Of a stretch of DNA of 64,000 nt, positions 5,801-29,888 are shown piece after piece. This DNA is from a virus. A program made the position numbers and the translations under genes. A model generated the notes under the pieces. It was not told the origin of the DNA and ran no database searches. It saw only the letters and a program-made list of their open reading frames with translations. Each line of letters opens with the position of its first letter. Position 1 is the stretch's first letter. The stretch is taken from the IMG/VR virus record IMGVR_UViG_3300029258_002856; one strand, given 5' to 3'.

Positions 5801-5924
5801 AACAGAGTGGGCCTTTCCAGGCCCTGGCACCGCAAAGATTGCAGTCTATGTAGTCGCTACCAGTCGACGTTGCTTCCGAAGTCTTCGTCGATGTCTGGTT
5901 CGTCGAGTGAGGGTTCTTCGGCAT
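2859..5924 (-). CDS. Family A DNA polymerase with N-terminal uracil-DNA-glycosylase-like domain and 3'-5' exonuclease
   Basis: Cys-rich UDG family-4-like N-terminus (IIAESP, AIRC, LALG). Exo motifs LDTET, GHNIKYD, YGAIDGD. Pol motifs A (DAKAAEVR), B (RKTIKRVVFGILYG) and C (TVHDSV). Confidence 0.92.
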   Translation of the reverse strand: MPKNPHSTNQTSTKTSEATSTGSDYIDCNLCGARAWKGPLCSECPLYRKKHYTEGIGADHTPADYYIIAESPHVMGPSGDLDNHQGWSLDTERIIRQTVSRFKEHNRMFAGLEGRYTYAIRCAIDKPNKRMGDCCSPLFHRELLKHAPQHRPIAVLALGPAVLRSLGVKYGKYKEVQGKFLEVQVQGRRVFIYPSLSKRQLAAKSGYVNVLERHVENFIHGTYALSKGEIVQTVVPMEQIVESYIFPSSPKEVRELVEFIINYAPPGKDPRHVLLSLDTETNTLHPHRQKLKLLSVVASWEEGQACSIPYEHPETPWKPEAVRPYIAELVTCSKPKVGHNIKYDLKVFERKGFYIRRISWDTMIGEHLLEEDKKGYYSLKDVTKLMLPKYAGYEDQLHDILNMLEAPTQVQQLKNEADGVKPTIPKSKLRGAAKKLAEDDGFLYVPLKQLNEYGAIDGDVTRQIAIIQMRRMAEENKRLYKKRNELWKTKNKYMRAIARPGVKDPNPLRQLMIKRGIPATRALARMEATGIRADHDYIDELIIDMDQSLRQSRQILNEMIPPKVLKDPFNPGSTAHLRKILFASGYLHPETQEAICYRGRVEPIYTSTGLESTNQAFLRSLVTQFECPFAKAVLKFRATSKARNTFVANVQTLSMEDGRMHTSFHIAGTSTGRLSSSDENMQNVPVRIGKHNLKKMFIPTDPETEVIVNADAKAAEVRIYAAYSRDPNLIKALNDGMDPHSFFASMVYNPATVLQDVEPIMRKAVMETVGIDDEHAWSYEDFQKRDYYKGTPENPGPDPEYGKRLGKLRKTIKRVVFGILYGASPRKVSYIVGIPQEQADVIIDTLFKMFPTIKHYIRLTKDQVRHLETVETFLGRRRRFNLKGLIFHLRNKAERQAVNFKIQSTSSDVVLGVLCELMDPLEQDFHGRMLITVHDSVVFEIPKQYISQVPDFIEEYGVKRVGEQYPWMPVPFKWDVEVGPSYGELASVESYLSENPEYRLGDEDEHIEQDIRSEFQQLVTV

Positions 5925-8900: not shown

Positions 8901-9318
8901 CCTTCTTCGGCAGAAAGCTGAGGTTGTATTTTTCTTGTAAGAACTGGAGGGTCTCGGCTTCCGAGATACCCTTGGTTATAGCAATAAGTTCGACGGGATT
9001 CGAAGTGAAATAGCCACAACCAAAACACTTGGCAAAGCAGCGGTCATCTTCGTTGGGTCCAGAGTGGAGCCAGAAGGATGGAGTATGATCCGCATGGTCG
9101 GGATGCGGACACCGCCCTAGCAGCGTATTTCTCGCGTGTACTTGAAACGCGTTATTGGGTTTATGCTCTTGAAAGAGCGTCAGCCAGTCACGAACATCAA
9201 TCTGTCGCCAGATTTTTTTAAGCTGTTCCCGGCTGATTCCTTTCTTCTTTTTCCGTTTGGTCGACGACATCGGCATTTGTCCCCGAACTGAAGGCAGGAC
9301 ACTTCGACTTGTAGTCAC
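5857..9318 (-). CDS. DnaG-like primase fused to a P-loop helicase-like domain
   Basis: CHC2 zinc finger (CPHPDH...CFGC), TOPRIM (VTEGEMDAMS, IGD, DLDE), C-terminal GETHSGKSS Walker A and LVLDEFE Walker B. Confidence 0.8.
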   Translation of the reverse strand: MTTSRSVLPSVRGQMPMSSTKRKKKKGISREQLKKIWRQIDVRDWLTLFQEHKPNNAFQVHARNTLLGRCPHPDHADHTPSFWLHSGPNEDDRCFAKCFGCGYFTSNPVELIAITKGISEAETLQFLQEKYNLSFLPKKAAAELEARRKNQLVKNAIFSAARDILVDALANSSAHPYAHQAVDWLINQRHVPKSVLSSLPVGIMPPLLNLQQVLSNQYKRRFKAWRANPTSDKPEDLTDDVTVYLEATYNNTKFNGAIIWPLHVTPKEIGRLKLRVPVSGSKDYAIPEDDFEENLGLYGLGWDAYKSFFKPGGSNYVYVTEGEMDAMSVMAQFMKSGSIHFPIVSAGGLGGAAHIEPVLKESGIEKIFLIGDSPKKGKAGGDTVVQGWLENIRELPTRVFVGWDELLPAGDLDEAVNTQQLGIAKVEETIWKKSDDNFTAPWNWAFERARHELDGLNQEDHRALIEKASEHGRYLRHRLEEAAYVKAVSEAYPQIPERILKLEITTREDNELGFILRVREALSDIFFVVGTLPRDNGRDLLLFHKINKTFTTVKLDSEQSIASELAPLAGNLVEFTKENVGFPAFLTPPDESEGLGMRKLNQNLRMYTKEAVNSLAQGAVDTRFATKLNQGYHCMRQGEHATDPKEYIVCGRDVFRVDRDGPEPTYELLAGPSDRGIVFNGDLSHGMPESWVPHGLTLDALNQGKDVDLKQLYEDIVTYYQCGFRFKNHDITARFLAAIIMLMPIMDVFPNPMMLFVTGETHSGKSSLLASFAGMNNLDHIQLLQHSNGWTSYSAKGVIQAASGDSRLLVLDEFELDGKNRHQVQQIYEIYRSMITGEVRRVVGQPLGVPIKLHLRHPVLFAAITAAEKPQDLNRLIQIEMHKTEFRTRADVPIMRELGREKLDQMRRGLCTGMYPHALKLRKLSEEIMEEYVEFRTELPVNVEWRFASNLYPVMALFKMLDIDWKQFFWDYAAQHEDVLTVAGSVTESETYLDALLQNSNLWDPDTKLSYSVSQMLINSERRAEINSRACGVYYDSQQNLLLFLVEQVIPRLLPPHLLNKGITSQRLKDTLGRHRMALSRKEIKESGILQRVGPYLGAGVKLENVVVLKVPDSWLRVTQDLPEEKAEDTPDAEEPSLDEPDIDEDFGSNVDW

Positions 9319-11183: not shown

Positions 11184-11299
11184 TTTTGCTTTCTCCTCTT
11201 ATTTCCGAGATGTTTCGGCAACTTGGGATAATAGCTCGGACTGCTTGCGCTGTCCAGACCTTTTGAGTACAGTCAGTGGTTAAGACAGGAGGCCTTACT

Positions 11300-12319
11300 A
11301 TGGACGACTTCTTCTCGGACCGAGTGTTCCGAGATTACTACGAAGACGTGGGCAAGCACCCTATCTTAACCGCTGCTGAAGAGAAAGCTCTACTGGTACG
11401 CTATAAAACGTGCCCTCATTGTAAACGACGTCTCCCTCATCGAGTACGTGTGCAGAACTGTCCTCGCTGCGCTACCGCCGCGCCGGAACGTAGCAACGGA
11501 CGCGTGTACGTATGCGAAAGATGTACGCTTCGATACGAAACGCACGTCAGTCCCAAGTACTGTCCGTCATGTGGTGCCGACCGCGATATGGAAGCGCGCA
11601 ACAAATTAATCGTTTCCAATTTGCGTTTCGTGATGACCACGGCACGCAAGATTACTAAGAATCCAATCCACGTCCAACGGCTCGTATCCGCAGGAAATCT
11701 GGGACTCATCATTGCAGTGGATAAGTTCGACCTAAGCAAGAAAACACGTTTCTTGACCTACGCCGCGTGGTGGATACGTAAGGAAATGATGGATGAGATA
11801 CACAACAGTCACCTGATACATATCCCTTCCCATAAGCAGAAAGCACATCGTCGGGCTCAGAAGTACGGAGTGTATGTCTGTAAACATTGTGACCTCCGAC
11901 TTGAGGACCCAGACATGCTCGACGCGAGTCTTAAACACCCATGCACGACGGGTACGCACGATTTCATGCTCGTCGACGAGAGTCCTTCCTTACATTCGTT
12001 TATGACCATCGACAACCTCCCAATTGCCGATGCCCATCAGAATATAGAAGAGACCACCATCGACTCCGACGTAGCGGGACTATTACACGCTGTGCTACAT
12101 CGGATACCCATCCGCGAGCGTGACCGGTTCATCATGATGCAATACTTCGACGTCGCCAAGGGCGAACGTCGCTCCCACAGTAAAAGTCTGCATCAGCTAG
12201 CCGCAATCACGGGCATCACGCCGGAGCGTGTGCGTCAGGTCAAGGAAGATGCCTTGAAATTCTTACGGCTGGAATTGGACCGGAAATGTGTGCGGAGTCT
12301 GTCGGACGTTTGCGCCTAG
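11300..12319 (+). CDS. Sigma70-family RNA polymerase sigma factor with zinc-ribbon insertions
   Basis: AGGAGG before ATG 11300. Region 1.2 YYEDVGKHPILTAAEE; region 2 SNLRFV...AGNLGLIIAVDKFD...RFLTYAAWWIR; region 4 SLHQLAAITGITPERVRQV. Confidence 0.9.
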   Translation: MDDFFSDRVFRDYYEDVGKHPILTAAEEKALLVRYKTCPHCKRRLPHRVRVQNCPRCATAAPERSNGRVYVCERCTLRYETHVSPKYCPSCGADRDMEARNKLIVSNLRFVMTTARKITKNPIHVQRLVSAGNLGLIIAVDKFDLSKKTRFLTYAAWWIRKEMMDEIHNSHLIHIPSHKQKAHRRAQKYGVYVCKHCDLRLEDPDMLDASLKHPCTTGTHDFMLVDESPSLHSFMTIDNLPIADAHQNIEETTIDSDVAGLLHAVLHRIPIRERDRFIMMQYFDVAKGERRSHSKSLHQLAAITGITPERVRQVKEDALKFLRLELDRKCVRSLSDVCA

Positions 12320-16164: not shown

Positions 16165-16444
16165 TCTGCCCCAGGATGCTCCCCATAGAGGGGCTATCGT
16201 CGCTGACCTCGTGAGAGGGGCGAATTCCTAGCTCTTCAGTCTCAGAAGTCTCAATGGTTCGAACTTGTAGGGAATCGGTAGCAGTGGGCTTTGGCGCTAC
16301 CTGTGCCATTTCGCCAACACGCACATTCTTAATGGTGACGTAGAACGGACGTGTCTTGATTTCGATGTCTTCTTCTTTTAATTCGTACCCGAGACCTTTA
16401 CTCAGTAAAGCTAGGAGCTCCTTCTTCTCCAGTTTGATTTCCAT
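16061..16444 (-). CDS. Hypothetical protein
   Basis: GAGGG before the ATG, co-directional, protein-like N-terminus. The 3' end overlaps the next gene by about 100 nt. Confidence 0.55.
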   Translation of the reverse strand: MEIKLEKKELLALLSKGLGYELKEEDIEIKTRPFYVTIKNVRVGEMAQVAPKPTATDSLQVRTIETSETEELGIRPSHEVSDDSPSMGSILGQSEDLARAGVPGVRPLGPTESHEPPPPGTEFGDED

Positions 16445-18494
16445 TGTTCCCTCGTCGCTGCGTAGGCTTGATGAGCCCCGGTCGAGTAACGATGCGACCC
16501 ATCGCAGGGGTTAATATACACCCTTTAGTCCACGGTTGAATACCCTTTTCAAAACATTTTTCGTGTTTATCACAGAAAAGGCAGTTTATATCCTTCGTTA
16601 ACGTTTTTGCGATGTCTTTACGCCGGTCTAAAGCCGCAAGTTGTTGCCGCTCTAAAGACCCGCGTGCCAGCAAACGATACACCATTACCCGTGAGGTCTG
16701 CCCTAGACGGTAGTTACGTCCCCGCGATTGTTCCCAGTCTTCAAGCTCCCAGGTGCGGCTGTAGTATATCGTGTACGCGGCGGCAGTGAGAGTGATAGCG
16801 ATACCCGTGGATATCTGTGCCAGGTAAACGCGACAGTTTTTCTCCTCCTGAAATTCTTTTTTGTAGACGTGAACCTTTCCCGAATTCTTTCCGTCCACTC
16901 GGACGTGTCCCCATTTTTTCTTTCGCAACAGCGCCTGGATGTCGTCGAGTTCGGCCTCGTAAACCGCCCAGACGATGACCTTGTTTCCCTCTTCGCTCAG
17001 GATGTCCGTGAGCAGCTCCTCTAACGCTTTCAGTTTCGGGTTGCTTGGAAACCGGAGGGTCTCTCGCGCGCCCCAGTTCTTCAGCTCGTCTTTCTTGTGA
17101 CAGAGGGGGGTTCCTGGGTGAATCTTGTTGACGACACAATCGTTCAGGGTTTCGCAGTCGTCACAGACGTTCATCTCCTTGGGAGAATAGAGGAAACCAC
17201 TACATATTTGTAAGAGCTTCGTGATGCGGATGGCGCTGTTGTGTAGCTCGAGAGGTTCTGCGTTGTGGCGCTCTATCTGCATATCCGTAATGGCGGTGTT
17301 GTAGGCTTGCATCTGCTCGGAGGACAATTCGAACTTGATATTCTGGTCGAAAATGCCAGGGAGACCTTCGAGTTCTTGTTCACTGGAGACTTCGCGTAAC
17401 CGTCTGTTTAGGACGTGGAGGTTCTTATACCCGATAACTATCTTGTCGTTTCGAGGCGAAACTTCTGTATAAGTCTGCCCGAACGTCTTCCAGTTTTCCG
17501 GGAAGATGTACCGGGCGAGGGCCTTCATCTGGGGGAACATATCCCGAGGGTCGCCGAGAGTGATGGTGCCGGTCAGCCACACTCGACGCGGTAACAGTGT
17601 CGCTAGCTTCAGGACTGCGCGTGTTCTCTTGCTCCGGATGGATTTGAAACGGTGTGACTCGTCCGCAATCAGAAGTTCAATCGGCAAATCACTCAGCCAC
17701 TGGATGTCATTCCCCACGAGGAGGCGTACCTCTTCGTCTATCTCTCTGGTTTTACGCCCCCGTATCCATTCTTGGGCCAGACGAGCTTGAAGTTTGCGGC
17801 TATTTGTACGCCGTAAAGCTTTTTGTAGTTTCGGGGTTGGGTAGAATTTTGCCTTCTCGAAGAGTTCTGCGGCCTCTCGGTAAAGGGTGGGGGTGCCGTA
17901 GCGCGCGGCCACATCGTAGGAGACTATGAAGATGTCTACGTCTGACTGGTCGGCTAGCACATCGAGTTTGGCCTGGGCGGAGGAGCCCAACATCTGAGCG
18001 GTGCTGAGAGTCCCTTCCGTGTGCATCTGTGTCTCTTCTGCCCAGTTCATGATAGCCACGACCGGACAGAGCACGAGGGCTCGAGCCTTGAGGATGTCAA
18101 CGGCGTCGACAGCGACTTTCGTTTTGCCAGTACCCATGGCCCAACGGAGCACCCAGCGGTGATTATAGAGTATCTCCGCTAGCCCTCTTTTTTGGTGTTC
18201 GAGGGTCGAATCCTTGTACGGACCTTTGAACTCGTAGGCTTCAACGAATTCCGTTTTCTCCTCTAAAGTTCCAACGCTCGCAATCCACTCGGCGGCTTTA
18301 GCCGTAAACGTTCCTTCTTTATGGACAACTTCAATATCGTGTAGTACTTTTTCGAGAAACGGTGGGTAAGCCGGAAAGAACCAACAGCGAGTTTTCTTGT
18401 CGTACGTTGCCCCATACACACGGAACCACTCGGCGTCACTTCGCTGCACCCGGAAGAGCGGGATTTTGTTTACGAAAACTGTGTCGATTTCCAC
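16398..18494 (-). CDS. SNF2-family helicase
   Basis: AMGTGKT (motif I), LLIADESH (II), LTGT (III), KVIVW (IV), GIAITLT (V), QSRGRNYRLGQ (VI). Cys-rich insert. GTG start with AGGAG. Confidence 0.88.
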   Translation of the reverse strand: MEIDTVFVNKIPLFRVQRSDAEWFRVYGATYDKKTRCWFFPAYPPFLEKVLHDIEVVHKEGTFTAKAAEWIASVGTLEEKTEFVEAYEFKGPYKDSTLEHQKRGLAEILYNHRWVLRWAMGTGKTKVAVDAVDILKARALVLCPVVAIMNWAEETQMHTEGTLSTAQMLGSSAQAKLDVLADQSDVDIFIVSYDVAARYGTPTLYREAAELFEKAKFYPTPKLQKALRRTNSRKLQARLAQEWIRGRKTREIDEEVRLLVGNDIQWLSDLPIELLIADESHRFKSIRSKRTRAVLKLATLLPRRVWLTGTITLGDPRDMFPQMKALARYIFPENWKTFGQTYTEVSPRNDKIVIGYKNLHVLNRRLREVSSEQELEGLPGIFDQNIKFELSSEQMQAYNTAITDMQIERHNAEPLELHNSAIRITKLLQICSGFLYSPKEMNVCDDCETLNDCVVNKIHPGTPLCHKKDELKNWGARETLRFPSNPKLKALEELLTDILSEEGNKVIVWAVYEAELDDIQALLRKKKWGHVRVDGKNSGKVHVYKKEFQEEKNCRVYLAQISTGIAITLTAAAYTIYYSRTWELEDWEQSRGRNYRLGQTSRVMVYRLLARGSLERQQLAALDRRKDIAKTLTKDINCLFCDKHEKCFEKGIQPWTKGCILTPAMGRIVTRPGLIKPTQRRGNNGNQTGEEGAPSFTE

Positions 18495-18553: not shown

Positions 18554-20290
18554 ATGACGACGGGATACAATATCGTTGACCCTTTCCTTTATGGGAAGCA
18601 GGGCGCGACGCACTCCAACCCGTATTACACATACAGTCAACTCTACAGCCCTAAACGGCTTCGAGATTTGTTCAAGTGGTGTGAATATCTGTTCTACAAC
18701 AGCTCTCACATTTACGCCGCCCTTCGGAAGTTTGGTGAGTATCCCATCACTGAGGTTACCTACGATACGACGAATGACGCCCTAAAGCAAAAGCACAAGG
18801 TACTTCTTCAGAAAGTCATCCGTATCCGCGAACTCCTGATAAAGGCGACCCTCGACAAATTCGTTTATGGAAACGCCTTCATCTCAATGTATCAGCCCTT
18901 TGTGCGGTACCTACGATGCCCGCACTGTTCTACGCTGACGAACATCCAGCACGTCAACTACAAATTTAGCGTTCGGAATTTGCACTTCTCCTACACCTGT
19001 CGGGCATGCGGTACCGCTGTGCGCGCCAAAGAGAAGGATGTCGAAGATCGAAAGTTGATGCTCAGTCGGAATATCAACTTCATCCGGTGGGACCCCAAGA
19101 AGATGGACATCGACCACAATCCGATGACGGGTGAGTCGGTGTACTACTACGAGATTCCGCAGTCGGTCATCCAGCGCGTTAACGACGGGCACAAGACTCT
19201 CATTGATACATTGCCTATGGGCTTCTTGAAAGCCATCAAGAAGAACAAACCATTCCGGTTTGCACCAGATGCGGTCTTCCACATGAAGATAGGTGGCCCT
19301 GCTGGAATCAACCCGCAGTGGGGTTTGCCCCCGCTTATCACGGCGTTGCAGCTCTTCCACTATACGGCGGTGCTTCGTAAAGCAAACGAGGCTATCGCGT
19401 TGGAATACCTTGTACCATTTAGAATCATACATCCCGCACAACAGAGCGGGAACGCGGACCCCGTACAGCAAATCAGTCTCGAGAACTGGCGCGACGAAAT
19501 GGCGCGCAACTTTAAGATGTGGCGTAAAGACCCTCTACACACGATGTGGGCACCGATTCCCGTCGGAATGACCCAAGTAGGGGGTCAGGGACGCGCGTTA
19601 CTCACTCTGGGGGAAGTCCAAGAGGCCGAGAAGAACATCGTTGCCGCTCTTGGCATCCCGATTGAGTTCCTTTACGGGGGTCTCACGAAGAGCGGGATGG
19701 AAGCAACCCTCCGTCTCATTGAAAATCAGCTCGAAACCCACGTCAACGACCTCAAGGACTTGCTCCAGTGGGTGGACGATAGCTGCTCGAAATTCCTTGG
19801 TTGGGAAAAAATACCGGTGAGCCTCACCAAGTTCCGAATGGTGGACGACTACAACAAGCAGGGAATGATGCTTCAGCTCTGGCAACAGGGTAAAGAGGGC
19901 GGTCCTCAAGTCGTTTCGGACACCACAATGGCTGAACTCAATGATATCGACCTCTCGCAAGAAGAGGAACGCATTAAGCAAGAAACGCTCGATGCCTACC
20001 GGCGTCAACGTGAACTCAATGCCGAACTCCAAAAGTTACAGAACAACCTCGCAGAAAAGGCTTTGCAGGAAGCTCAGAGCGGTGGGAACGCCACCAACCA
20101 GCAGCAAATCATCGGGCAGGCGGATATGATTGTACAGGAGCTTGCGCAGATGGACGAAGGAATGCGCAGGAGCAGGCTGCATGAGCTTCAGGTATCTGAC
20201 CAAGTGCTTTACGCCGTAGTGATACAGCGGTGGGAACAATACCAAACAAGCATGACTCAGGAAGCCAAATCCAGCATGAGGATGGGCTAG
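18554..20290 (+). CDS. Portal protein (probable)
   Basis: 578 aa, first gene of the virion block. Portal-like segments: IYAALRK, DKFVYGNAF, WGLPPL, IVAALGIPIEFLYG, SDTT. Coiled-coil C-terminus; CPHC/CRAC insert. Confidence 0.7.
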   Translation: MTTGYNIVDPFLYGKQGATHSNPYYTYSQLYSPKRLRDLFKWCEYLFYNSSHIYAALRKFGEYPITEVTYDTTNDALKQKHKVLLQKVIRIRELLIKATLDKFVYGNAFISMYQPFVRYLRCPHCSTLTNIQHVNYKFSVRNLHFSYTCRACGTAVRAKEKDVEDRKLMLSRNINFIRWDPKKMDIDHNPMTGESVYYYEIPQSVIQRVNDGHKTLIDTLPMGFLKAIKKNKPFRFAPDAVFHMKIGGPAGINPQWGLPPLITALQLFHYTAVLRKANEAIALEYLVPFRIIHPAQQSGNADPVQQISLENWRDEMARNFKMWRKDPLHTMWAPIPVGMTQVGGQGRALLTLGEVQEAEKNIVAALGIPIEFLYGGLTKSGMEATLRLIENQLETHVNDLKDLLQWVDDSCSKFLGWEKIPVSLTKFRMVDDYNKQGMMLQLWQQGKEGGPQVVSDTTMAELNDIDLSQEEERIKQETLDAYRRQRELNAELQKLQNNLAEKALQEAQSGGNATNQQQIIGQADMIVQELAQMDEGMRRSRLHELQVSDQVLYAVVIQRWEQYQTSMTQEAKSSMRMG

Positions 20291-21005: not shown

Positions 21006-21035
21006 TTTACGTCTTCGTATCTCATCTCCTATACT
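21006..21035 (+). promoter_or_regulatory. Sigma70-like promoter for the RNAP operon
   Basis: TTTACG-N18-TATACT (CC-TATACT-T), 25 nt before the ATG at 21060, which has GGAGG. Confidence 0.55.
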
Positions 21036-21059
21036 TCATTTGACTTTTGGAGGAACTCG

Positions 21060-24000
21060 ATGCCCGAACTTACGCCCATTCTGGTGGACCCAGAGACCCG
21101 GCGCGACATGATTCGTGTCAAGGTCTTAGAGGGGTTGAAAGAGTCGTTTCCCCTCAAGGCCCGGAACCGCACTATCGAAGTCGATAACCTCGAAGTCGAT
21201 ACGAAAGAATTCTCATCGACAGACCAGAAGAATGCTCTCTTGCGGGGGGACTCCCTCTTCGAGCGCGTGAAAGGGACGGTTCGTCTCCGCGACAACAAGG
21301 GGAAGGTACTGAGCGAGGCATCGAACTTTACGCTAGCTCGCGTCCCATGGTTCACCCCACGCCACACCCTCATCGTAGGCGGCAACGAGTACTCCATTTC
21401 CAACATGGTGCGTCCGAAGCCCGGCGTGTACGCACGAAAGCGTGCCAATGGGATTCTGGAAGCGAACTTCAACGTCGTGGGCGGCGCGAACTTCAACGTG
21501 AGTATGGACCCCGAAAAGGGTGAACCGCAACTCGAGTACGGCGCGACGAAGGTACCCCTTTACCCCGTATTGCGGAGGGCCGGGGTCAGCCACGAGCGTA
21601 TCTCGAAAGCGTGGGGGAAGCAGCTGGCCGAAGCGAACTTCAAGAAGCTGTGGAAAAACTCGGGACGCACTATCGACAAGCTCTACGGGAAAGTCATTCC
21701 CGAGTACCGGCGCACTGCCGGTGCGGATACCGAGGCGAAGACGCGGGAAATATTTGCGCGTTACGCCGAAGCGAAGATGGACCCCGACGTCAACCGTCAG
21801 ACCCTCGGCAAGGGATACCGGGAAGTAACCCCCGACAGCCTGTTAGACGCCTCGGGGAAAGTCTTGCGCATCTTCAAGAACGCGGACGAGATTGACGACC
21901 GGGATAACCTGGACTTCAAGTCCTTCCACTCCGTCGATGATTTCTTCAAAGAGCGTATCAAACTGGACGCACGAGAGATTGCGCGGAAGGCAGCAATCAA
22001 GTCCGAGTCGACTCCGGACGTGAAGCGTATCATCCCCCCTGGTCCGTTTACATCTGGCCTCGTGAAGTTCATCAATAGCTCCCAGCTTGCGTCAGTTCCT
22101 ACGCAGACGAATCCCATGGAGCTCATTGACTCCGCGGTGCGCGTCACTTCCCTCGGGGAGGGTGGCATCTCGAGTGAGCGTGCGATTCCCATGGAAGCAC
22201 GACAGGTACATGTCACCCAGATGGGAGCGTTGGACCCTATACGCACTCCTGAGTCTTTCCGGGCCGGGATCGATGTCCGCGCCGCGATGATGGCAAAGCG
22301 CGATGCGCGTGGAAACATCTACGTGCCCGTGCTGGACGCGAAAACGCGCCGGGGTAAGTACATCCGCGCAGGGGATTTGCAACGCTCGGTCGTCGCTTTT
22401 CCGGGACAACAGTTGAGGGGACAAGTAGAAGCCCTTGATAACGGTGAAATCAAACGCCTTGCAGCGTCGCGGGTTCAGTACCAGATTCCACATGCTTCGG
22501 CACTCTATAGCCCCGCGACAAACCTGGTGCCGTTCCTCGAATCAGCACAAGGTAACCGGGCCATCATGGGTTCGAAGATGCAGGTTCAGGCCCTCTCTCT
22601 GGTGGGCCGAGAAGCTCCCATGGTCCAGGTCAAGTCGCAGACGGGGCCTACCTTCGAGCGCATCATGGGTGGGGTCATTAACCCAGTCTCCCCGGTGTCT
22701 GGGGTGGTCAAGAAAATCGACAAGGACTACATCTACGTCCAACCGGACGGCGAGAAGACCGGAGCCAAGGGCAACAAGTATGTAAAGATTCCGTATGAAA
22801 CCAACTTTCCTCTCGCAGCCAAAACGTACCTTGACCACAAACTTGGAGTACAGAAAGGTGACAAGGTTTCTGCGGGTCAGCGCTTGGGCGAGTCCAACTT
22901 CACGGATAACGGGGTCCTGGCGCTGGGCAAGAATCTGCGCGTAGGCTTCATGGCTTATGACGGGGCGAACTCCAACGATGCCGTAGTCGTCAGTGAGGGC
23001 GGCGCGAAAAAGCTCACGTCCGAGCGCATGTACAAAATCGTGGTCCCTCGAGACCCGGACTTGACATTCAGCCGGGACAAGCACCGCACTTACTATGGAC
23101 ACGGATATACCAAGGACCAATACAAGCCTATCGATAAAGAAGGCGTGATTGCGCCGGGTACGCAGATTAATCCAGGTGACCCCCTCGTCATGGGACTTCG
23201 CAAGACACAGCTCACCGCGGATGACGTACTTCTTGGACGGCTGCACAAGTCACTGGCGCGTCCGTTCCGTGAGAACGTACATGATTGGGACCATGACCAC
23301 CCTGGCGAAGTCGTGGACGTCGTGAAGACGCCCAAGCGAATCGCCATTACTGTCAAGACACGAGAACCTGCTGGCATCGGAGACAAGGTTGCTGGGCGCT
23401 ACGGCAATAAAGGGGTCATCTCGCAAATCGTTCCCGACGACCAGATGGTGCGAGACGAGAAGGATAGGCCTATCGACATCCTGATGACTCCCGCCGGGGT
23501 GGTATCTCGTATCAACCCGAGTCAGATTATCGAGACTGCCGTGGGGAAGGTCGCGGAGAAGACCGGAAAGCCGATTGCCGTAGAGAACTTCTCTGGGCGC
23601 AACAACGTTCAATGGGCCAAGGATTTACTCAAGAAACACGGACTCAAAGACAAGGAAACGGTGTACGACCCGCGTACCGGGCGCAAGATTCCCGGGGTGC
23701 TTGTTGGGCGGCAATATATCATGAAGCTCTTCAAGTCCACGGACACCAACTACTCAGCACGGGGCATCGAGAATTACGACGTAAACCAGCAACCAGCTAA
23801 GGGGGGTACTCAGAGCGCCAAGGTGCTGGGTCGTATGGAGTTCGACGCGCTCCTCTCCCATGGAGCACGGAACGTCTTACGAGAAGCCGCAACTCTGAAG
23901 AGCCAAAAGAATGACGAGTGGTGGCGCAACATGCAGCTCGGATACCCTACGCCACCTCCAAAGACCACTTTCGCTACTGACAAGTTCCTTACGATGCTTA

Positions 24001-25412
24001 CCGGGGCCGGAGTGCGCGTCGACCGGGAGAAGAACCAGCTTGCACTTGCCCCTCTCACGGACGCGGACACCTTGAAGCTCTCCTCAGGAGAAATCAAGGA
24101 CGCCAAGTTGGTGCGTGCCAAGGACTTGAAGCCCGAGCGTGGCGGACTCTTCGACCCCGCAGTTACCGGGGGCGTTCGCGGAGGAAAATGGTCCCACGTC
24201 GCTTTAGCGGAGCCGGTGGTCAACCCCGTATTCCGTGACCCTGTTCGACGTCTCCTGGGGATGACTAACTCCCAACTAGACCAGGCTATCCGGGAGAAGG
24301 GTGCGCGGCACATCAAGCGCGAACTCGGAAAGCTGGACCTGGATACCAGGGAAAAAGAACTCTACAAATCTCTCCGGGGACGTAAAGGTTCTGCGCTGGA
24401 TAACGATGTCAAGCAGCTCAAATATATCAAGGCTCTCAAGAAGCAGGGCCTCACTCCAGGTGACGCCTACGTCATTTCCAAAGTGCCAGTGGTGCCCCCA
24501 GTAGTGCGCCCAATCCTTCCCGGTAAAGGCGGCCAGGAACTCATCTACGGGGACATCAACCCTCTCTACCGCGACCTCGTGTACTTGAACAACCAGTTCA
24601 AAGATGTCAAGCAGTCCAAGCTGCTGCCCGACGAAGAGCAGCGTTTACGGCCTGCGTTGCAACAAGCAGTCGGGGCAGTTTACGGGGTAAATGACCCTAT
24701 CACTGCCAAGTCCAAAGCGCGGGGGCACAAGGGGTTCCTCACATATATCTCCGGTAAGGGAAGTCCCAAGTTCGGGTACTTCCACTCTAAACTCATGCGC
24801 CGTACACAGGACGTATCTGGCCGCGGCACCATTGTTCCCGATGTAACGCTCGGCATGGATGAAGTGGGCCTCCCTGAAGATATGCTGTGGTCCATGTACG
24901 GGAAATTCACCACCAAACGTCTGGTGGAGAAGGGTTACCAACCTCTTCAGGCCCAGCAGATGATTCAGGAGAAACATCCGGCTGCGCGAGAGGCGATGCT
25001 GCGAGAGGCCAAAGATAGGCCGGTGATGATTAACCGGGCTCCTACTCTTCACCGCTACAACATGATTGGGGCGTACGCCAGACCGATTCCGGGCAAGACC
25101 ATTCGGGTCAATCCGTTCCTTGAGAAAGGAATGAACGCGGACTACGACGGCGATACGATGATGGTTCATGTGCCGGTGCAGTCCAAAGCTGTTGACGATG
25201 TGAAGAAGATGACGCTCTCCAACTTACTCTTCGGAGACAAGTCCCGGGATGAGCTCATGGTCTTCCCGCAGCACGAAGCCATCATGGGTATCGCACATGC
25301 ATCTGAGCAGGATTCCGGAGGCGTAGTTAAAAAATTTAAGACTCGGGGTGAAGCGATGAAGGCGTACCATGAAGGTAAAATTGGATTAGGGACGCGAGTG
25401 AAAATAGGTTAG
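21060..25412 (+). CDS. rpoB-rpoC: Multisubunit RNA polymerase: beta subunit fused to the N-terminal half of beta-prime
   Basis: Beta motifs: GNRAIMGSKMQVQA, GDKVAGRYGNKGVIS, DILMTPAGVVSRINPSQ, YIMKL, QQPAKGG, GRMEFDALLSHGA. Beta-prime motifs: GGLFDP, WSHVALAEPV, VPVVPPVVRP, NRAPTLHR and catalytic NADYDGD. Confidence 0.95.
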   Translation: MPELTPILVDPETRRDMIRVKVLEGLKESFPLKARNRTIEVDNLEVDTKEFSSTDQKNALLRGDSLFERVKGTVRLRDNKGKVLSEASNFTLARVPWFTPRHTLIVGGNEYSISNMVRPKPGVYARKRANGILEANFNVVGGANFNVSMDPEKGEPQLEYGATKVPLYPVLRRAGVSHERISKAWGKQLAEANFKKLWKNSGRTIDKLYGKVIPEYRRTAGADTEAKTREIFARYAEAKMDPDVNRQTLGKGYREVTPDSLLDASGKVLRIFKNADEIDDRDNLDFKSFHSVDDFFKERIKLDAREIARKAAIKSESTPDVKRIIPPGPFTSGLVKFINSSQLASVPTQTNPMELIDSAVRVTSLGEGGISSERAIPMEARQVHVTQMGALDPIRTPESFRAGIDVRAAMMAKRDARGNIYVPVLDAKTRRGKYIRAGDLQRSVVAFPGQQLRGQVEALDNGEIKRLAASRVQYQIPHASALYSPATNLVPFLESAQGNRAIMGSKMQVQALSLVGREAPMVQVKSQTGPTFERIMGGVINPVSPVSGVVKKIDKDYIYVQPDGEKTGAKGNKYVKIPYETNFPLAAKTYLDHKLGVQKGDKVSAGQRLGESNFTDNGVLALGKNLRVGFMAYDGANSNDAVVVSEGGAKKLTSERMYKIVVPRDPDLTFSRDKHRTYYGHGYTKDQYKPIDKEGVIAPGTQINPGDPLVMGLRKTQLTADDVLLGRLHKSLARPFRENVHDWDHDHPGEVVDVVKTPKRIAITVKTREPAGIGDKVAGRYGNKGVISQIVPDDQMVRDEKDRPIDILMTPAGVVSRINPSQIIETAVGKVAEKTGKPIAVENFSGRNNVQWAKDLLKKHGLKDKETVYDPRTGRKIPGVLVGRQYIMKLFKSTDTNYSARGIENYDVNQQPAKGGTQSAKVLGRMEFDALLSHGARNVLREAATLKSQKNDEWWRNMQLGYPTPPPKTTFATDKFLTMLTGAGVRVDREKNQLALAPLTDADTLKLSSGEIKDAKLVRAKDLKPERGGLFDPAVTGGVRGGKWSHVALAEPVVNPVFRDPVRRLLGMTNSQLDQAIREKGARHIKRELGKLDLDTREKELYKSLRGRKGSALDNDVKQLKYIKALKKQGLTPGDAYVISKVPVVPPVVRPILPGKGGQELIYGDINPLYRDLVYLNNQFKDVKQSKLLPDEEQRLRPALQQAVGAVYGVNDPITAKSKARGHKGFLTYISGKGSPKFGYFHSKLMRRTQDVSGRGTIVPDVTLGMDEVGLPEDMLWSMYGKFTTKRLVEKGYQPLQAQQMIQEKHPAAREAMLREAKDRPVMINRAPTLHRYNMIGAYARPIPGKTIRVNPFLEKGMNADYDGDTMMVHVPVQSKAVDDVKKMTLSNLLFGDKSRDELMVFPQHEAIMGIAHASEQDSGGVVKKFKTRGEAMKAYHEGKIGLGTRVKIG

Positions 25413-26909
25413 ATGCCTTACGCCTCACCAGCACAACGCGCCGCAGTCTGGGCCAAACGCAATGCGCAAGCAGTCCTGACTTCGGGAAACCCTGTCACCA
25501 AGCAGGAAGTGCACGATTACTACTCTAACCCGGTCATTAAGCAGCGTGTCTTGGCAGCCCTGGCAAACCGGGACCTTTTGGCAATCCAGTCAAGAAGCCC
25601 GGATGAGCAAATCGTCAGGCGCTACCGCAAGAAGAATGAGCCCATTCGTGTTGAGAACCCCGAGGACCTCGACTGGTATTCCTCTCGACGCTACACCGAG
25701 TTCCATCCTACGGTCGGGGAGAAGACGGATGAGGTCTGGGTGGATATCGACCCGGGCAAAAACAAGAATACCGAGGACACCAAGGGTCCTACAAAATTTG
25801 TCTATGACCTCCTACGCACCATCCCCGCAGTCAAAGCCGTTGAGCTGGCGTTTTCTGGTGGGCGGGGATTTCATGTGCGTGGAAAACTAGATAAGCCTCG
25901 ACCGACCAATGAAGCCCGTGGAATGCTCCAGGAGTATCTGAAACAGCTCCCTGAACGGCATACGGAACTCACGCTCAAGACGCCGAGGCCAGATGAGATT
26001 CGGTTGGATGTCTCTACCTTGCACCCAAAAGGCTCTATCCGGGCTCCGTATTCTCTCAACGCAGAGACGGGTCTCGTAGCAGTACCGCTCGTTCCATCTC
26101 AGCTCGAGAAGTTCAACCCGCAGAAAGATGCGACACCACAAACGGTGTTGGGCAAGACCGAGTTCGCTCCCGGTATCCCTCAAGAGCGAAAAACATACCC
26201 CCTCCCCGATTTCAAGCGACCGAAAACTTGGACTCTCGCAATCCAAGAACACGATGCGCAACGGGCCGGGAAGCATTGGGACCTTCGCCTCGTCGACCCT
26301 CGAACAACGCATGCCCACTCCTGGGCAGTGCCAAAGGCGCAGTTCCCGCAAGGCAATAGCCCGCTTCTGGCGGTACAGACTCCGACACATACGGCGAGGT
26401 ACGCTCTCACCTTCGGGGAACGCAAACCCAAGGAGATTCGGAAGGGGTATGGAAAGGGCGTCGTTCAAATTTTGCACAAGGAACCTGTAAAGGTCTTGTC
26501 GTCTTCGCCCGATAAAATTAAATTTGAGAGAGACGTGGACGGAAATCCGGAGAGGTACATGCTGTTCAAGTCAAAAGAAAATTCATGGTTGATGCGCCGA
26601 ATCAAAGAAGCGGGGCGTGCAGCTATGCTCAAGAAGTTGGGCGTCGACAAGAGTAAATTCGTGGGCAAGAAACCCTCTAACACCGAGCTGGAAACCCCAA
26701 TGGATGTCGAGGATGAGGGGCTCCCGGCAGGACAGCTTGCTCGTGCCCTCTCGGATATACCGACGGCTGCGGGGCGAGAGAACCGTGATGCTCAAGGCAC
26801 TGATGATGTGGAGGGACGCCTCAACCGCACGACGACTTGGACTGAGCCTGACCACATCCCGATTGACTACGCTCAGGGTCCGTCGCCGGTTATGCCGGGG
26901 AAATTCTAA
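25413..26909 (+). CDS. ligD: LigD-like protein: primase-polymerase (PolDom) plus 3'-phosphoesterase domain, no ligase domain
   Basis: AEP motifs EFHPT, WVDIDPG, FSGGRGFHV, RLDVS...APYSL...VAVPL. PE motifs IQEHDAQRAGKHWDLRL, SWAVPK, LAVQTPTH...Y, GYGKGVV. No KxDG ligase motif. Confidence 0.85.
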   Translation: MPYASPAQRAAVWAKRNAQAVLTSGNPVTKQEVHDYYSNPVIKQRVLAALANRDLLAIQSRSPDEQIVRRYRKKNEPIRVENPEDLDWYSSRRYTEFHPTVGEKTDEVWVDIDPGKNKNTEDTKGPTKFVYDLLRTIPAVKAVELAFSGGRGFHVRGKLDKPRPTNEARGMLQEYLKQLPERHTELTLKTPRPDEIRLDVSTLHPKGSIRAPYSLNAETGLVAVPLVPSQLEKFNPQKDATPQTVLGKTEFAPGIPQERKTYPLPDFKRPKTWTLAIQEHDAQRAGKHWDLRLVDPRTTHAHSWAVPKAQFPQGNSPLLAVQTPTHTARYALTFGERKPKEIRKGYGKGVVQILHKEPVKVLSSSPDKIKFERDVDGNPERYMLFKSKENSWLMRRIKEAGRAAMLKKLGVDKSKFVGKKPSNTELETPMDVEDEGLPAGQLARALSDIPTAAGRENRDAQGTDDVEGRLNRTTTWTEPDHIPIDYAQGPSPVMPGKF

Positions 26910-28708
26910 TGGCTGAAGGTCAACCGTTCGGGCGCTGGCTCTTGAATACCCAGTTGCCTTCTGGGTTCAAGGTCAACTCCCCCGTGGGAAAGAAGCGCCT
27001 CAACCAAATGATGAATGACCTGGCGCGCAAGGACCCTACGCAATACACCACGACTATTGCAGGCCTTAAACGTCTAGGCGATGAGCTTGCGACGCAGGAA
27101 GGCCTCTCCATCGGGCTGGATGACATCGAGCCTGAATACCGGAAACGGGATGCGCAGATGCGTCCCTTCCGTCAGAAGTTTCAGGCGGCACGTACAACCG
27201 CACAGAAGCGCCAGATACTGGAGCAGCTCCACGGAAAAATTACTGATGCCGCCATGAAGCACCGCGGGAGTCTCACGCAGCAAGTACAGAGCGGTGCTCG
27301 CGGTTCTCCCACTCAGTACATGAAGATTGTCGGTAGCCCGGTATACGCTCGGGATGCCAATGGAAAAGTTACTCCTTGGCTCATCCCACGTTCCTACAGT
27401 GAAGGGTTATCGGCTGCTGACTACTGGGCTGCGGGCAACGAAGCTATCTCGGATACCATCAAGTCGAGCACTGCGGTGTCCGAGCCCGGAGAGCTGTCCA
27501 AGATTCTCATTAACAACATGAACGATATCGTGGTGACCGAACAGGATTGCGGAACGGTCAATGGTATCCTCATGGACCCCAAAAACCCCGATGTTCAAGA
27601 CCGTTATCTGGCTCGCAGTGAAGGGGGAGTGCGGAAAGACACCCTCATCAGTCCACAGGTGCAAGCCCGACTGGCCAAGAGCAAGAAGAAAATCCTGGTG
27701 CGTTCGCCGATGACTTGTGAGGCCGGTGATGGGGTCTGCCAGAAGTGCCAGGGTCTCAATGAGCGCGGGAACCTTCACACAGTAGGCACCAATGTTGGCA
27801 TCCGAGCAGCCCAGGCCATGGCGGAACCGCTCACCCAGTTCGCCCTCAATGCGAAGCATGGTGTTCGTACGGCCAAGAGCGACCGCTTGCAAGTTCACGG
27901 CATGCAGGGCTTTCGCCAGATGACAGAATCACCTCGGCAGTTCATGAACAAGGCGACCCTGGCAGGGGAAGAAGGGAAGGTCACGAAGATTGAGAAGGCC
28001 CCGCAAGGAGGACATTTCGTCTACGTCGGCAGCACCAAACATTACGTGACTCCCAACATCAACGTTGTGGCCAAGGTGGGACAGAAGGTCGAACGCGGAG
28101 ACGCGCTGAGCGGTGGGATACCCAAGCCAGATGAGGTGGTAGCCTTCAAAGGTTTGGGAGCTGGACGTCGATATATGGTCGATACGTTGAAGGAACTCTA
28201 CAAGAACCAAGGACGTAATCTCGACCAACGACACTTCGAGCTGTTGGCCAAAGGCGAACTCAATCACGTACGTATCGTGGATGACCCAGGTAGGAACTTC
28301 ATTCCCGGCGATATTGTAGATTACAATCACTTCCGTTCGATTTTACGGGGTAATACGAAGACTCTTCCATTGACGCAAGCGCGCGGGGAGACCCTCGGGA
28401 AAGAGCACCTCCACTTCTCCGCCGGGACTCGTGTGACTCCTTCGGTGGAGCGGGCACTCCACAAAGAGAAAATCAAGGATGTCATCATTGCACCCCGGGC
28501 TCCTGAGGTTGAGTTTGTGATGAAGCCCGCTACTAGAGCCCCGCTTCTTAACCCAGATTGGATGGCTCGTTTGGCGCACCGGAACCTGAAGACAACGCTT
28601 CAACAAGCTGCGCACTTTGGTGATGTTACGAATGTCCACGGAACAAATCCCATCCCGGCCTATGTTTTTGGCGTAGAATTTGGGCAGGGAGAAGAGGGAC
28701 GATACTGA
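26909..28708 (+). CDS. rpoC: RNA polymerase beta-prime, C-terminal half
   Basis: SIGLDDI, SGARGS, SYSEGLS, bridge helix ending VTEQDCG, RSPMTCE...VCQKCQG zinc site, trigger loop VGIRAAQAMAEPLTQFAL, RHFELL. Confidence 0.93.
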   Translation: MAEGQPFGRWLLNTQLPSGFKVNSPVGKKRLNQMMNDLARKDPTQYTTTIAGLKRLGDELATQEGLSIGLDDIEPEYRKRDAQMRPFRQKFQAARTTAQKRQILEQLHGKITDAAMKHRGSLTQQVQSGARGSPTQYMKIVGSPVYARDANGKVTPWLIPRSYSEGLSAADYWAAGNEAISDTIKSSTAVSEPGELSKILINNMNDIVVTEQDCGTVNGILMDPKNPDVQDRYLARSEGGVRKDTLISPQVQARLAKSKKKILVRSPMTCEAGDGVCQKCQGLNERGNLHTVGTNVGIRAAQAMAEPLTQFALNAKHGVRTAKSDRLQVHGMQGFRQMTESPRQFMNKATLAGEEGKVTKIEKAPQGGHFVYVGSTKHYVTPNINVVAKVGQKVERGDALSGGIPKPDEVVAFKGLGAGRRYMVDTLKELYKNQGRNLDQRHFELLAKGELNHVRIVDDPGRNFIPGDIVDYNHFRSILRGNTKTLPLTQARGETLGKEHLHFSAGTRVTPSVERALHKEKIKDVIIAPRAPEVEFVMKPATRAPLLNPDWMARLAHRNLKTTLQQAAHFGDVTNVHGTNPIPAYVFGVEFGQGEEGRY

Positions 28709-29256
28709 TGTCGAATTTCGAAGCAGGCTACAACGCTACACTAGCCTCTCTGGGAATAACCAAGGAGGCTCGCATCTGGCCCGCACTTCGAGGATTCGGG
28801 CAGAGGTTCGCCAAAAACTTCAAGCAAATTGCCGTTGGGAGTCCCCTCCAGGCCACGAAAGAAATCATGGCTGGGAAGGCTCTGAAGCCCGGAGGACTTA
28901 TTCGAGCGGGATTCGACCCCGGAAAAGGCAAGATGGGACTTCTGATGGGTGGCCTCTTCTACGGGCTCCCGGCCTATCAAGCGTACAAGGTATATAAGAG
29001 CGATGCTCCGAACAAGGCTGAAGAAATCGGCAAGATTCTCGGGGGGACCGCTGCTGGCCTGGGGACCTGGCGTGCTTACGGGATGTTGGGGTCTATGTTG
29101 GCGACGCCAATAGGCGAGCGTCTCGGTGGGGCAGCAGGACGATTAGGACAAACGCTGGCCGGAAAACCTGTTCCGAAAGAAGCCCCGCCCCCTCCGCCTC
29201 CCCGCACAGGGATGTTGCCAGCGCAACCTCAATATGGGATGTACCCCTATTACTAG
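28708..29256 (+). CDS. Gly-rich hydrophobic protein, putative internal head/ejection protein
   Basis: Coupled to rpoC-C (TGATG). Short leader ending TKEA, two Gly-rich hydrophobic segments, Pro-rich tail. Confidence 0.6.
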   Translation: MSNFEAGYNATLASLGITKEARIWPALRGFGQRFAKNFKQIAVGSPLQATKEIMAGKALKPGGLIRAGFDPGKGKMGLLMGGLFYGLPAYQAYKVYKSDAPNKAEEIGKILGGTAAGLGTWRAYGMLGSMLATPIGERLGGAAGRLGQTLAGKPVPKEAPPPPPPRTGMLPAQPQYGMYPYY

Positions 29257-29270
29257 GGGTTGGGTTTTTT
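29243..29270 (+). terminator. Rho-independent terminator of the RNAP operon
   Basis: ACCCCTA-TTAC-TAGGGGT followed by TGGGTTTTTT, overlapping the stop codon. Confidence 0.6.
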
Positions 29271-29288
29271 ACAAAGGCGGCATATACT
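29260..29288 (+). promoter_or_regulatory. Sigma70-like promoter
   Basis: TTGGGT-N17-TATACT, 49 nt upstream of the 29337 start. Confidence 0.55.
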
Positions 29289-29336
29289 TCACGGTGAGTT
29301 TTAACCGATCACCGGTCAAAAAGGAGAGGTAGACAA

Positions 29337-29888
29337 ATGAATCACCAGCAACTTCTTGAGCAAGTCAAGTTGGCTTACGCTTACGGCGCAAGCGTGGCGC
29401 TTCAGGAAGCTGGCGTGGACCAGGCTACTGCGGAGCAGGCCGGGATCAAGCTGGCTGAGGAAGCCGTTACCCAAGAGAAGCGAGCCGAAGAAGACGAAGA
29501 GGGTATCCACCCGGCGCTCCTGGCTCTCCTGGGTGCCGGTGGCGGCGCGGCCCTCGGCGCAGGCGCGGGGGGACTCGTCGGCAAGCTGACGGGTAAGAAC
29601 CTGCTTTCACGGGGCATGCGGCCACTAGGTAAGGCCGTTGACCGTCTCGGTGGTCCCGCGAATGTGCCCAGCGTACCGTCTGGCGGCCTCATCGACACCA
29701 AGAAACTCCAAGCGTTGCAAGAGGCGGCACAACTGTCACCGAAGGAGCAGCTGGCGAACAAGCTGCACGACCTCCTGATGGGTGCGGGTCGCATGGGCTC
29801 CATTCGTGGCAGTGCGGCGGCGGGCGCGGGAATGGGCGGTGTCGCGGGTGGTACGGCGGGCGGCTTGCTCGGCGGATTGCAGGACTAA
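29337..29888 (+). CDS. Glycine-zipper-like protein, putative internal virion protein
   Basis: GGAG RBS; GAGGGAALGAGAGGLVG and GAGMGGVAGGTAGGLLGG segments after K-x-A motifs. Confidence 0.65.
   Translation: MNHQQLLEQVKLAYAYGASVALQEAGVDQATAEQAGIKLAEEAVTQEKRAEEDEEGIHPALLALLGAGGGAALGAGAGGLVGKLTGKNLLSRGMRPLGKAVDRLGGPANVPSVPSGGLIDTKKLQALQEAAQLSPKEQLANKLHDLLMGAGRMGSIRGSAAAGAGMGGVAGGTAGGLLGGLQD

Follow-up and report, generated by a model that had tools for sequence, protein, structure and literature searches.

A LigD-type polymerase-phosphoesterase protein encoded between the RNA polymerase genes of a 179-kb phage

Why would a phage encode the end-processing domains of the bacterial repair enzyme LigD between the two halves of its RNA polymerase (RNAP)? 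This question is raised by the 64,000-nucleotide stretch analysed here (the window), part of the IMG/VR virus record IMGVR_UViG_3300029258_002856, whose full length is 179,063 bp and which CheckV rates as complete. DNA of this uncultured phage was traced to sediment and seawater metagenomes (DNA sequencing runs). Between a gene for RNAP β fused to the N-terminal half of β′ (β/β′N) and a gene for the C-terminal half of β′ (β′C) lies a gene for a protein of 498 amino acids (aa), which we call the middle protein. A first reading made from the letters and open reading frames (ORFs) of the window, the sequence-only reading, had seen in it a primase-polymerase domain (PolDom) belonging to the superfamily of archaeo-eukaryotic primases (AEP) and a 3′-phosphoesterase (PE) domain, with no ligase domain, and had proposed that it heals or caps the ends of the incoming linear genome, or primes or edits 3′ ends for an RNAP without α subunit. 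We followed this up with profile searches, structure prediction and comparison of related loci.

Domains of the middle protein and its coupling to the RNAP genes

The middle protein (positions 25413-26909, plus strand) matched Pfam LigD_Prim-Pol (PF21686) at E = 5.8e-16 (59.3 bits against a cut-off of 27.4; residues 69-248) and the PE family LigD_N (PF13298) at E = 9.6e-8 (32.6 bits, above threshold). NCBIfam agreed with Pfam on both domains and neither library found a ligase domain, as the sequence-only reading had it; neither PHROGs nor PADLOC assigned the protein to a family. The AlphaFold model had a mean predicted local distance difference test (pLDDT) score of 84.6 and was confident over residues 20-400. 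In Foldseek, the model aligned with the PolDom of Mycobacterium tuberculosis (Mtb) LigD (2iry) at E = 8e-13 and a template modelling (TM) score of 0.71 by target, and with archaeal and Pseudomonas PE domains at TM scores of 0.62-0.82, the archaeal PE 3p4h giving 0.82. The closest sequence matches in the PDB were 3p4h (8.6e-8, or 7e-14 with a profile) and 5dmu (1e-3). From PF21686, Foldseek and the invariant residues described below, the LigD-type PolDom was placed at residues ~25-250 (25485-26162, plus strand), and from PF13298, the profile match to 3p4h and the invariant residues, the LigD-type PE domain at residues ~271-397 (26223-26603, plus strand).

Residue conservation was read from an alignment of 44 relatives that are 41-62% identical to the middle protein. 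In the PolDom, D111, D113, S148, G149, G152, D199 and R210 were invariant. D111 and D113 correspond to Asp137 and Asp139 of the Mtb enzyme (motif I, DxD), and D199 was assigned to the Asp of motif III by pattern only. Motif II (Ser172...His178 in LigD) is represented by the invariant S148 and by H154 of the window protein, a position that is Tyr in about one-fifth of the relatives shown. In the PE domain, Q278, H280, H288, D290, R292, H326 and Y330 were invariant. The manganese-binding triad His42/His48/Asp50 is present as H280, H288 and D290 (aligned to 3p4h, 3p43 and 3n9b), and the phosphate contacts Arg52, His84 and Tyr88 together with Gln40 (Pseudomonas aeruginosa) are R292, H326, Y330 and Q278. 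A structural review of LigD lists the residues matching both invariant sets as catalytic or substrate-binding (PMC8656161). We looked for degenerate catalytic Asp and His residues and found none. By sequence and predicted fold, the PolDom and the PE domain are members of their LigD families.

The flanking genes encode bacterial-type β and β′ catalytic modules. The first (21060-25412, plus strand; 1450 aa) joins RpoB domains 3/6/7 to the N-terminal half of RpoC with the active-site motif NADYDGD, according to Pfam (Rpb2_6, 1.5e-45; Rpb1_2, 3.3e-21), PHROGs and NCBIfam (rpoB and the N-terminal half of rpoC). The second (26909-28708, plus strand; 599 aa) is the C-terminal half of β′ (Pfam Rpb1_5, 2.2e-18; NCBIfam rpoC positions 553-1067; PHROGs), and Rpb1_1 was matched as well. 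There is only one β/β′ set in the 179-kb genome, and RNAP α (PF01000, PF01193) gave no match in it, in agreement with the RNAP having been described as α-less. The borders of the three ORFs were exact to the base. At the junction TAGATG, the GGT TAG that ends the first gene at 25412 is followed at the very next base by the ATG of the middle gene, and at the junction TAATG (26909) the last A of the TAA of the middle gene is the first base of the β′C ATG. The middle gene is thus translationally coupled to both RNAP genes.

The operon continues beyond β′C, with a fourth gene (28708-29256, plus strand) whose ATG overlaps the TGA of β′C (ATGA) and which encodes a Gly-rich protein of 182 aa with an N-terminal GYxxxLxxLG helix motif. 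Family searches with this protein gave no match; the same position is occupied by a gene of 174-200 aa in the related loci L004 and L005 and in an NCBI contig. A strong intrinsic terminator (29243-29270, plus strand; a GC-rich stem of 7 bp with a T-run behind it) closes the four-gene operon. The sequence-only reading had given the operon its own promoter and terminator. The terminator stands, placed after the fourth gene and not directly after β′C. The sigma-70-like promoter at 21006-21035 proved to be at chance level (3 found versus 4.8 expected), and another candidate takes its place: the motif CCTATACTTCA at 21028-21038 on the plus strand, ~30 nucleotides (nt) before the first ATG of the operon, a putative phage promoter. 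TATACTTCA occurs twice in the window versus 0.12 copies expected, both times directly upstream of a gene, and eight of the 12 genome copies of CCTATACTT (TATACTT core) are in the coding orientation with a gene starting 13-54 nt further on. Besides the gene that opens the RNAP operon, CCTATACTT precedes seven others, among them the next one after the operon; its sites are at window positions 21028-21038, 29281-29291, 51750 and 57288, with five more in the phage's own genome (G000). We therefore regard CCTATACTT as a candidate phage-specific promoter. Co-expression of the middle enzyme with the RNAP genes from a single operon is well supported by the gene arrangement.

We also searched the 179-kb genome for partner genes. 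Ku (PF02735) gave no match, nor did DNA and RNA ligases (PF01068, PF01653, PF09414, PF09511, PF01139), so that ATP- and NAD-dependent DNA ligases, Rnl1, Rnl2-type RNA ligase and RtcB were all undetected; the positive controls of the Ku and ligase searches worked in most cases.

Conservation within one clade and chimeric origin

The family of the middle protein comprises more than 100 protein clusters (90% identity, from metagenomes): 221 clusters of similar length were found at E ≤ 1e-3, and the best 120 of these 221 are 40-60% identical and nearly all Pol plus PE, with 170-185 kb for the longest contigs. In a library clustered at 50% identity, 98 representatives matched at E ≤ 1e-30. Where the context of family members was checked, they lay on phage contigs of about 170-190 kb. 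A tblastn search with the middle protein found no match in 50,697 phage records. Closest among named phages are Salmonella phage Arash and the Vibrio phages D181, D148 and D69, with β′C 30-32% identical; in Arash and D181 the gap between the RNAP genes holds unrelated genes, some on the opposite strand, and the small genes before β′C (Arash gp215, D181 0269/0270) showed no visible relation to the small protein of this gap described below, as compared by eye.

A β′C profile recovered 78 viral loci, 26 with and 52 without PolDom-PE between the RNAP genes. In the β′C tree, the carriers form a clade (Shimodaira-Hasegawa-like approximate likelihood ratio test, SH-aLRT, 100) in which the gene is present in 31 of 32 rows, and the synteny was kept in every in-clade context inspected (L004, L005 and the NCBI contig). 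The synteny expected in related contigs was thus found within this large clade. The catalytic core co-diverges with β′C (mean identity 49% versus 60%), and PolDom-PE was held at the exact position while β′C diverged to ~52% identity. A second branch of the tree (L007, L008) carries variants with inserted domains. A separate observation concerns G002, the genome of L039 and one of five complete sister genomes searched: it has no PolDom-PE in the slot but a PE match (E = 9.5e-20) at C1:68212-68661, inside a 1281-aa ORF that lies outside the slot between the RNAP genes.

The catalytic domains are flanked by two segments that we call carrier termini: an N-terminal peptide with the motif MPYxSPAQR (residues 1-17; 25413-25463, plus strand; found by regular expression) and a C-terminal tail (residues 399-498; 26607-26909 with the stop that overlaps the β′C start, plus strand; found by an iterated hidden Markov model, HMM). 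The tail is mostly of low confidence or disordered, with conserved short motifs. Its HMM was built from the C-terminal ~100 aa of the family and iterated over the six-frame ORFs of 84 loci. In 61 of these there was exactly one match, always between the two RNAP genes: fused to PolDom-PE in 31 loci, as a stand-alone protein in 29 and after a short PE remnant in L010. The stand-alone tail ORFs, in the 29 loci without PolDom-PE, are 81-268 aa long (stop to stop). MPYxSPAQR had a single match across the six frames of the phage's own genome. In related loci the N-peptide motif was confined to the slot with one exception, located at the start of PolDom-PE, of the stand-alone tail-bearing small protein, or of slot ORFs that precede a tail ORF.

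Since the tail and the N-peptide mark a stand-alone slot protein in loci without PolDom-PE, we conclude that the middle protein is chimeric: as the comparison of loci indicates, PolDom-PE is inserted in the window's clade between the N-peptide and the remainder of this protein. The ancestral slot protein is accordingly the N-peptide, a GxxxALxxxG helix, an acidic segment and an RxxxRxTxW motif in series. In L010, the window's nearest relative (75% β′C identity), PolDom and most of the PE domain are replaced by ~5 kb, and the last PE strands with the whole tail survive as an ORF directly before β′C; the tail is therefore kept even where the catalytic domains were lost.

Several other searches with the slot protein gave little. 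AlphaFold produced no usable fold for the stand-alone protein (pLDDT 49), Pfam and PHROGs contained no family for it, a word-based search restricted to the tail yielded a single close relative, and an ESM Atlas search of the tail returned nothing usable. Within the phage's own genome, the tail HMM matched the N-termini of two downstream genes weakly (E 0.5 and 5.6) and a 69-aa ORF at 5e-4. The amphipathic helix ([FY]xxG[YV]xxALxxLG) that opens the tail of PolDom-PE has similar counterparts at the start of small proteins encoded at window positions 28708-29256, 29337-29888 and 48707-49342 and at G000:C1:14778-14987. A strict form of its motif had four matches versus 0.24 expected, all within the first 45 residues. 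The loose form G-x4-[LM]-x3-G-hydrophobic showed no overall enrichment (14 versus 11.4 expected), which limits the enrichment to the stricter form and N-terminal placement. To judge from its motif, the shared helix may be a docking or targeting element.

Proposed role, virion delivery and rival explanations

The explanation that we favour, tentatively and with slightly less than even confidence, is that the middle protein is a chimeric 3′-end healing and fill-in enzyme brought by its carrier termini to the RNAP or the inside of the capsid, or to both. The activity would be Mn-dependent 3′-end healing with short fill-in: the PE domain would remove 3′-phosphates or extra 3′-ribonucleotides, and at breaks or gaps the PolDom would extend the end by a few (ribo)nucleotides. 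Through its carrier termini the enzyme would share the destination of the slot protein, be it the RNAP complex, the inside of the capsid or the two together, and would thereby enter the host along with the DNA. Delivered in this way, it would act on phage DNA at or soon after injection, keeping the DNA intact and transcribable, and final sealing would fall to the host ligase. We infer the activity, substrate, tethering, RNAP binding and packaging of the middle protein in this scheme.

Virion delivery of the operon products is indirectly supported by analogy with Arash. The homologues of β/β′N and β′C in this phage are the first and fifth most-detected virion proteins by mass spectrometry (PMC10585845), and the window's operon lies inside the head module, since a portal gene lies just before it and a head-protease domain and a capsid gene lie downstream. 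The portal gene (18554-20290, plus strand; 578 aa) is 29% identical to the annotated portal of Arash (tblastn, E = 6e-83), and a counterpart of 577-583 aa precedes the RNAP operon in L004, L005 and L008. The N-terminal helix motif common to the tail and several small phage proteins gives further indirect support.

A number of observations weigh against this explanation. The gene is absent from the sister clades and from four of the five complete sister genomes, and it was lost in the nearest relative, L010, where other genes replace it; the expectation that relatives have it at the same place therefore held within the clade only. Because of these absences, PolDom-PE is accessory and dispensable and, to judge from its distribution, a long-kept accessory of one clade and not a core RNAP component. 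The PolDom-x-PE proteins of L007 and L008 have neither the N-motif nor the tail, and tethering is therefore not universal. In the PE domain, the equivalent of Glu82 is the invariant Pro324 (TPTH in place of EDH), and Glu82 is required for 3′-phosphatase activity according to the LigD review (PMC8656161). The 5′-phosphate pocket of non-homologous end joining (NHEJ) enzymes looks incomplete: only the Lys26-like K30, part of a TKxD..YY motif, shows near-invariance, and most members either lack the Asn13/Lys16 segment or have it in variable form. The positions compared with Asn13, Lys16 and Lys26 of the Mtb sequence are presumed ones. In view of the Glu82-to-Pro change and the missing part of the pocket, we file the domains as members of their families and the whole protein not as a LigD; the residues compared do not support its membership in an NHEJ system. 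Finally, Arash is only ~30% identical and has no PolDom-PE gene, and its mass spectrometry listed 116 proteins.

Rather unlikely, to our minds, though the strongest of the rival explanations, is a free accessory enzyme of repair or counter-defence, for which the gap between the RNAP genes would be no more than a permissive hot spot for late-expressed accessory genes and which would act in the cytoplasm on damaged phage DNA, neither bound to RNAP nor packaged. The slot indeed varies greatly in content across clades (0.55-5.4 kb; SNF2, ferritin/Dps-like, DUF5662 and Gly-zipper genes and small unknown ORFs), and the unrelated and partly opposite-strand genes in the gap of Arash and D181, the loss in L010, the absence from sister genomes and the forms without carrier termini in L007 and L008 all fit a hot spot. 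What it accounts for poorly is that in the window's clade the catalytic module is in frame with both termini of the resident slot protein, with zero or negative spacing to both RNAP genes and a position held while β′C fell to ~52% identity. An enzyme of RNA ends, healing or extending the 3′ ends of tRNAs or transcripts cut by host ribonucleases or of nascent RNA at stalled RNAP, appears improbable. It would suit the co-translation with an RNA polymerase, the seemingly incomplete pocket for a DNA 5′-phosphate and the variants with an additional P-loop kinase-like or HD phosphohydrolase domain, domains that usually accompany RNA end healing; moreover, LigD PolDoms prefer ribonucleoside triphosphates and PE domains trim 3′-ribonucleotides and 3′-phosphates (PMC8656161). 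However, the substrates reported for PolDom and PE domains are ends and primer strands of DNA (PMC8656161), the SNF2 and Dps-like neighbours in the slot suggest DNA, and none of Rnl1, Rnl2-type ligase and RtcB was detected in the genome.

Less probable still is NHEJ-type joining of the incoming genome ends, in which host Ku and ligase would circularise or protect the injected linear DNA. The domains are those of an NHEJ end-processing enzyme, of the five sister genome records searched, three have direct terminal repeats according to IMG/VR, and there is a precedent in mycobacteriophages Corndog and Omega, which encode their own Ku and use the host LigD. In the present phage, however, Ku was undetected and the record has no end repeats, N13 and K16 of the end-synapsis pocket are missing in most members, and close relatives manage without the enzyme. 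A replicative primase or replication-primer processor is the least probable of all. The AEP superfamily, weak matches to PriS models and the automatic JGI name 'DNA primase' of several relatives point in this direction. Yet in sequence and fold the protein matches NHEJ PolDoms best, not PriS or PrimPol, there is no zinc-finger or helicase module, and the gene lies in the head module instead of the replication module and is dispensable in relatives. The phage has a separate DnaG-type primase (phrog_47; 1153 aa, 5857-9318) as well as a family-A DNA polymerase (PolA). Given this DnaG-type primase and the NHEJ-type fold, we rejected the replicative-primase reading.

Healing of phage DNA by an enzyme carried on the slot protein's termini thus remains the explanation we prefer. 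It can be widened to one in which the slot protein is a docking adaptor: its termini (an MPFKSxAQR peptide and the GxxxALxxxG and RxxxRxTxW motifs of the tail) would dock onto the virion RNAP or the inside of the capsid, and its middle would be an exchangeable payload site, so that different lineages would co-inject different enzymes with the RNAP, namely PolDom-PE, SNF2-PolDom-PE or unknown modules of 200-400 aa. We consider this wider proposal possible and rather doubtful.

Among known systems, bacterial LigD (M. tuberculosis, P. aeruginosa) shares both folds with the phage enzyme, along with the DxD, SxxxxxH and D motifs of the polymerase and the His-His-Asp and Arg-His-Tyr sets of the PE domain, and the Mtb enzyme also has the order Pol then PE. 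The phage enzyme differs in having no ligase domain (and no Ku gene in the phage), a PolDom of ~225 instead of ~290 aa, Pro at Glu82 and, in most phage members, no N13/K16 part of the pocket; it is encoded inside an RNAP operon and fused to the carrier peptide and tail. The stand-alone archaeal NHEJ Pol and PE proteins (Methanocella paludicola 5dmu and 5dmp; Korarchaeum PE 3p4h) likewise have no covalently attached ligase, but they are separate single-domain proteins encoded with Ku and ligase, whereas the phage domains are fused to each other and to the slot-protein termini. Mycobacterial Prim-PolC (6sa0, 5op0; Foldseek E = 3e-11) is also a ligase-less LigD-like PolDom, filling short gaps with ribonucleotides; unlike the phage protein, it is cellular, lacks a PE domain and partners LigC in excision repair. 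The virion RNAPs of large phages (phiKZ and AR9 virion RNAP; Arash Gp206 and Gp216) resemble the RNAP of the window in being of β/β′ type with split β′ and no α and in being encoded among head genes, but neither in the Arash and Vibrio phage D181 records nor in the literature searched did we find a repair enzyme between the RNAP genes. In phage T4, polynucleotide kinase/phosphatase heals ends, and capsid-targeting sequences on internal proteins are terminal peptides that load enzymes into the head. Both T4 systems are functional analogies only, with no sequence or fold relation to PolDom-PE.

No account of a phage RNAP operon with a LigD-type Pol-PE enzyme turned up in a literature search, and LigD goes unmentioned in a survey of jumbo-phage genomics, in line with the arrangement having been thought undescribed. 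The domains themselves are well known; the ligase-less fusion, the fixed place in the RNAP operon and the carrier-and-payload build are new. LigD Pol and PE domains have so far been known from bacterial and archaeal NHEJ, and here they occur without ligase in the operon of a probable virion RNAP. Should the enzyme accompany the RNAP, the phage DNA entering the cell would undergo repair or preparation as it is first transcribed, a step of which we found no description. The carrier-plus-payload build offers a handle on how enzymes are loaded into virions or onto RNAP, and on the roles of small unrecognisable subunits of phage RNAPs. The catalytic part, with ~400 aa and two predicted activities, should be easily expressed and assayed.

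Neighbouring genes and other payloads of the slot

Three further genes of the window deserve mention. An SNF2-family helicase gene (16398-18494, minus strand; Pfam SNF2-rel_dom, 1.6e-16) precedes the portal gene. A sigma-factor gene lies at 11276-12319 (phrog_351, 1.4e-33), and the phage RNAP may therefore use the phage's own sigma factor. The third is the DnaG-type primase gene mentioned above. Also encoded in the genome are a large terminase and, by a weak PHROG match, a candidate for the major head protein. The sequencing runs listed for the RNAP-operon locus are DNA only, with no RNA data set among them.

The slots of related phages contain PolDom-PE proteins in several forms. PolDom-HD-PE, PolDom-(P-loop kinase-like)-PE and PolDom-SNF2-PE were found at the slot, all without carrier termini, and an SNF2-PolDom-PE variant retains the tail; the SNF2 fusions with PolDom-PE are P0123 and P0132. 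SNF2 genes reside in the slot on their own in L010 and L067. In L010, the replacement (L010:4284-10001) consists of a 214-aa ORF, an SNF2 helicase, a DUF5662 protein, a Gly-zipper protein and a 451-aa unknown protein, and the 451-aa ORF is in frame with the ORF for the PE remnant and tail, with one stop codon between them. In sister clades, the first gene after β/β′N encodes a ferritin/Dps-like protein of ~200 aa (L036:8503-9132, L049:8394-9002; Pfam Ferritin, ~1e-11 to 1e-10), a type of DNA-protecting protein. The PolDom-PE variants and the SNF2 and ferritin/Dps-like payloads all act on or protect nucleic acids.

Longer RNAP ORFs were observed in L058, L059 (9968-13300), L060 (6360-9284) and L073 (3366-9077). 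The β′C ORFs are 975-1111 aa long (stop to stop) and bear C-terminal extensions of ~400-500 aa, and one β/β′N ORF has 1903 aa. By their length, these ORFs may represent further fusions of accessory domains to RNAP. Among distant metagenomic relatives of the middle protein (P0180, P0148, P0154, P0156) there are full Lig-Pol-PE LigD proteins, as well as a 1551-aa protein in which PolDom-PE is joined by a 2H/Acb1-like phosphoesterase domain.

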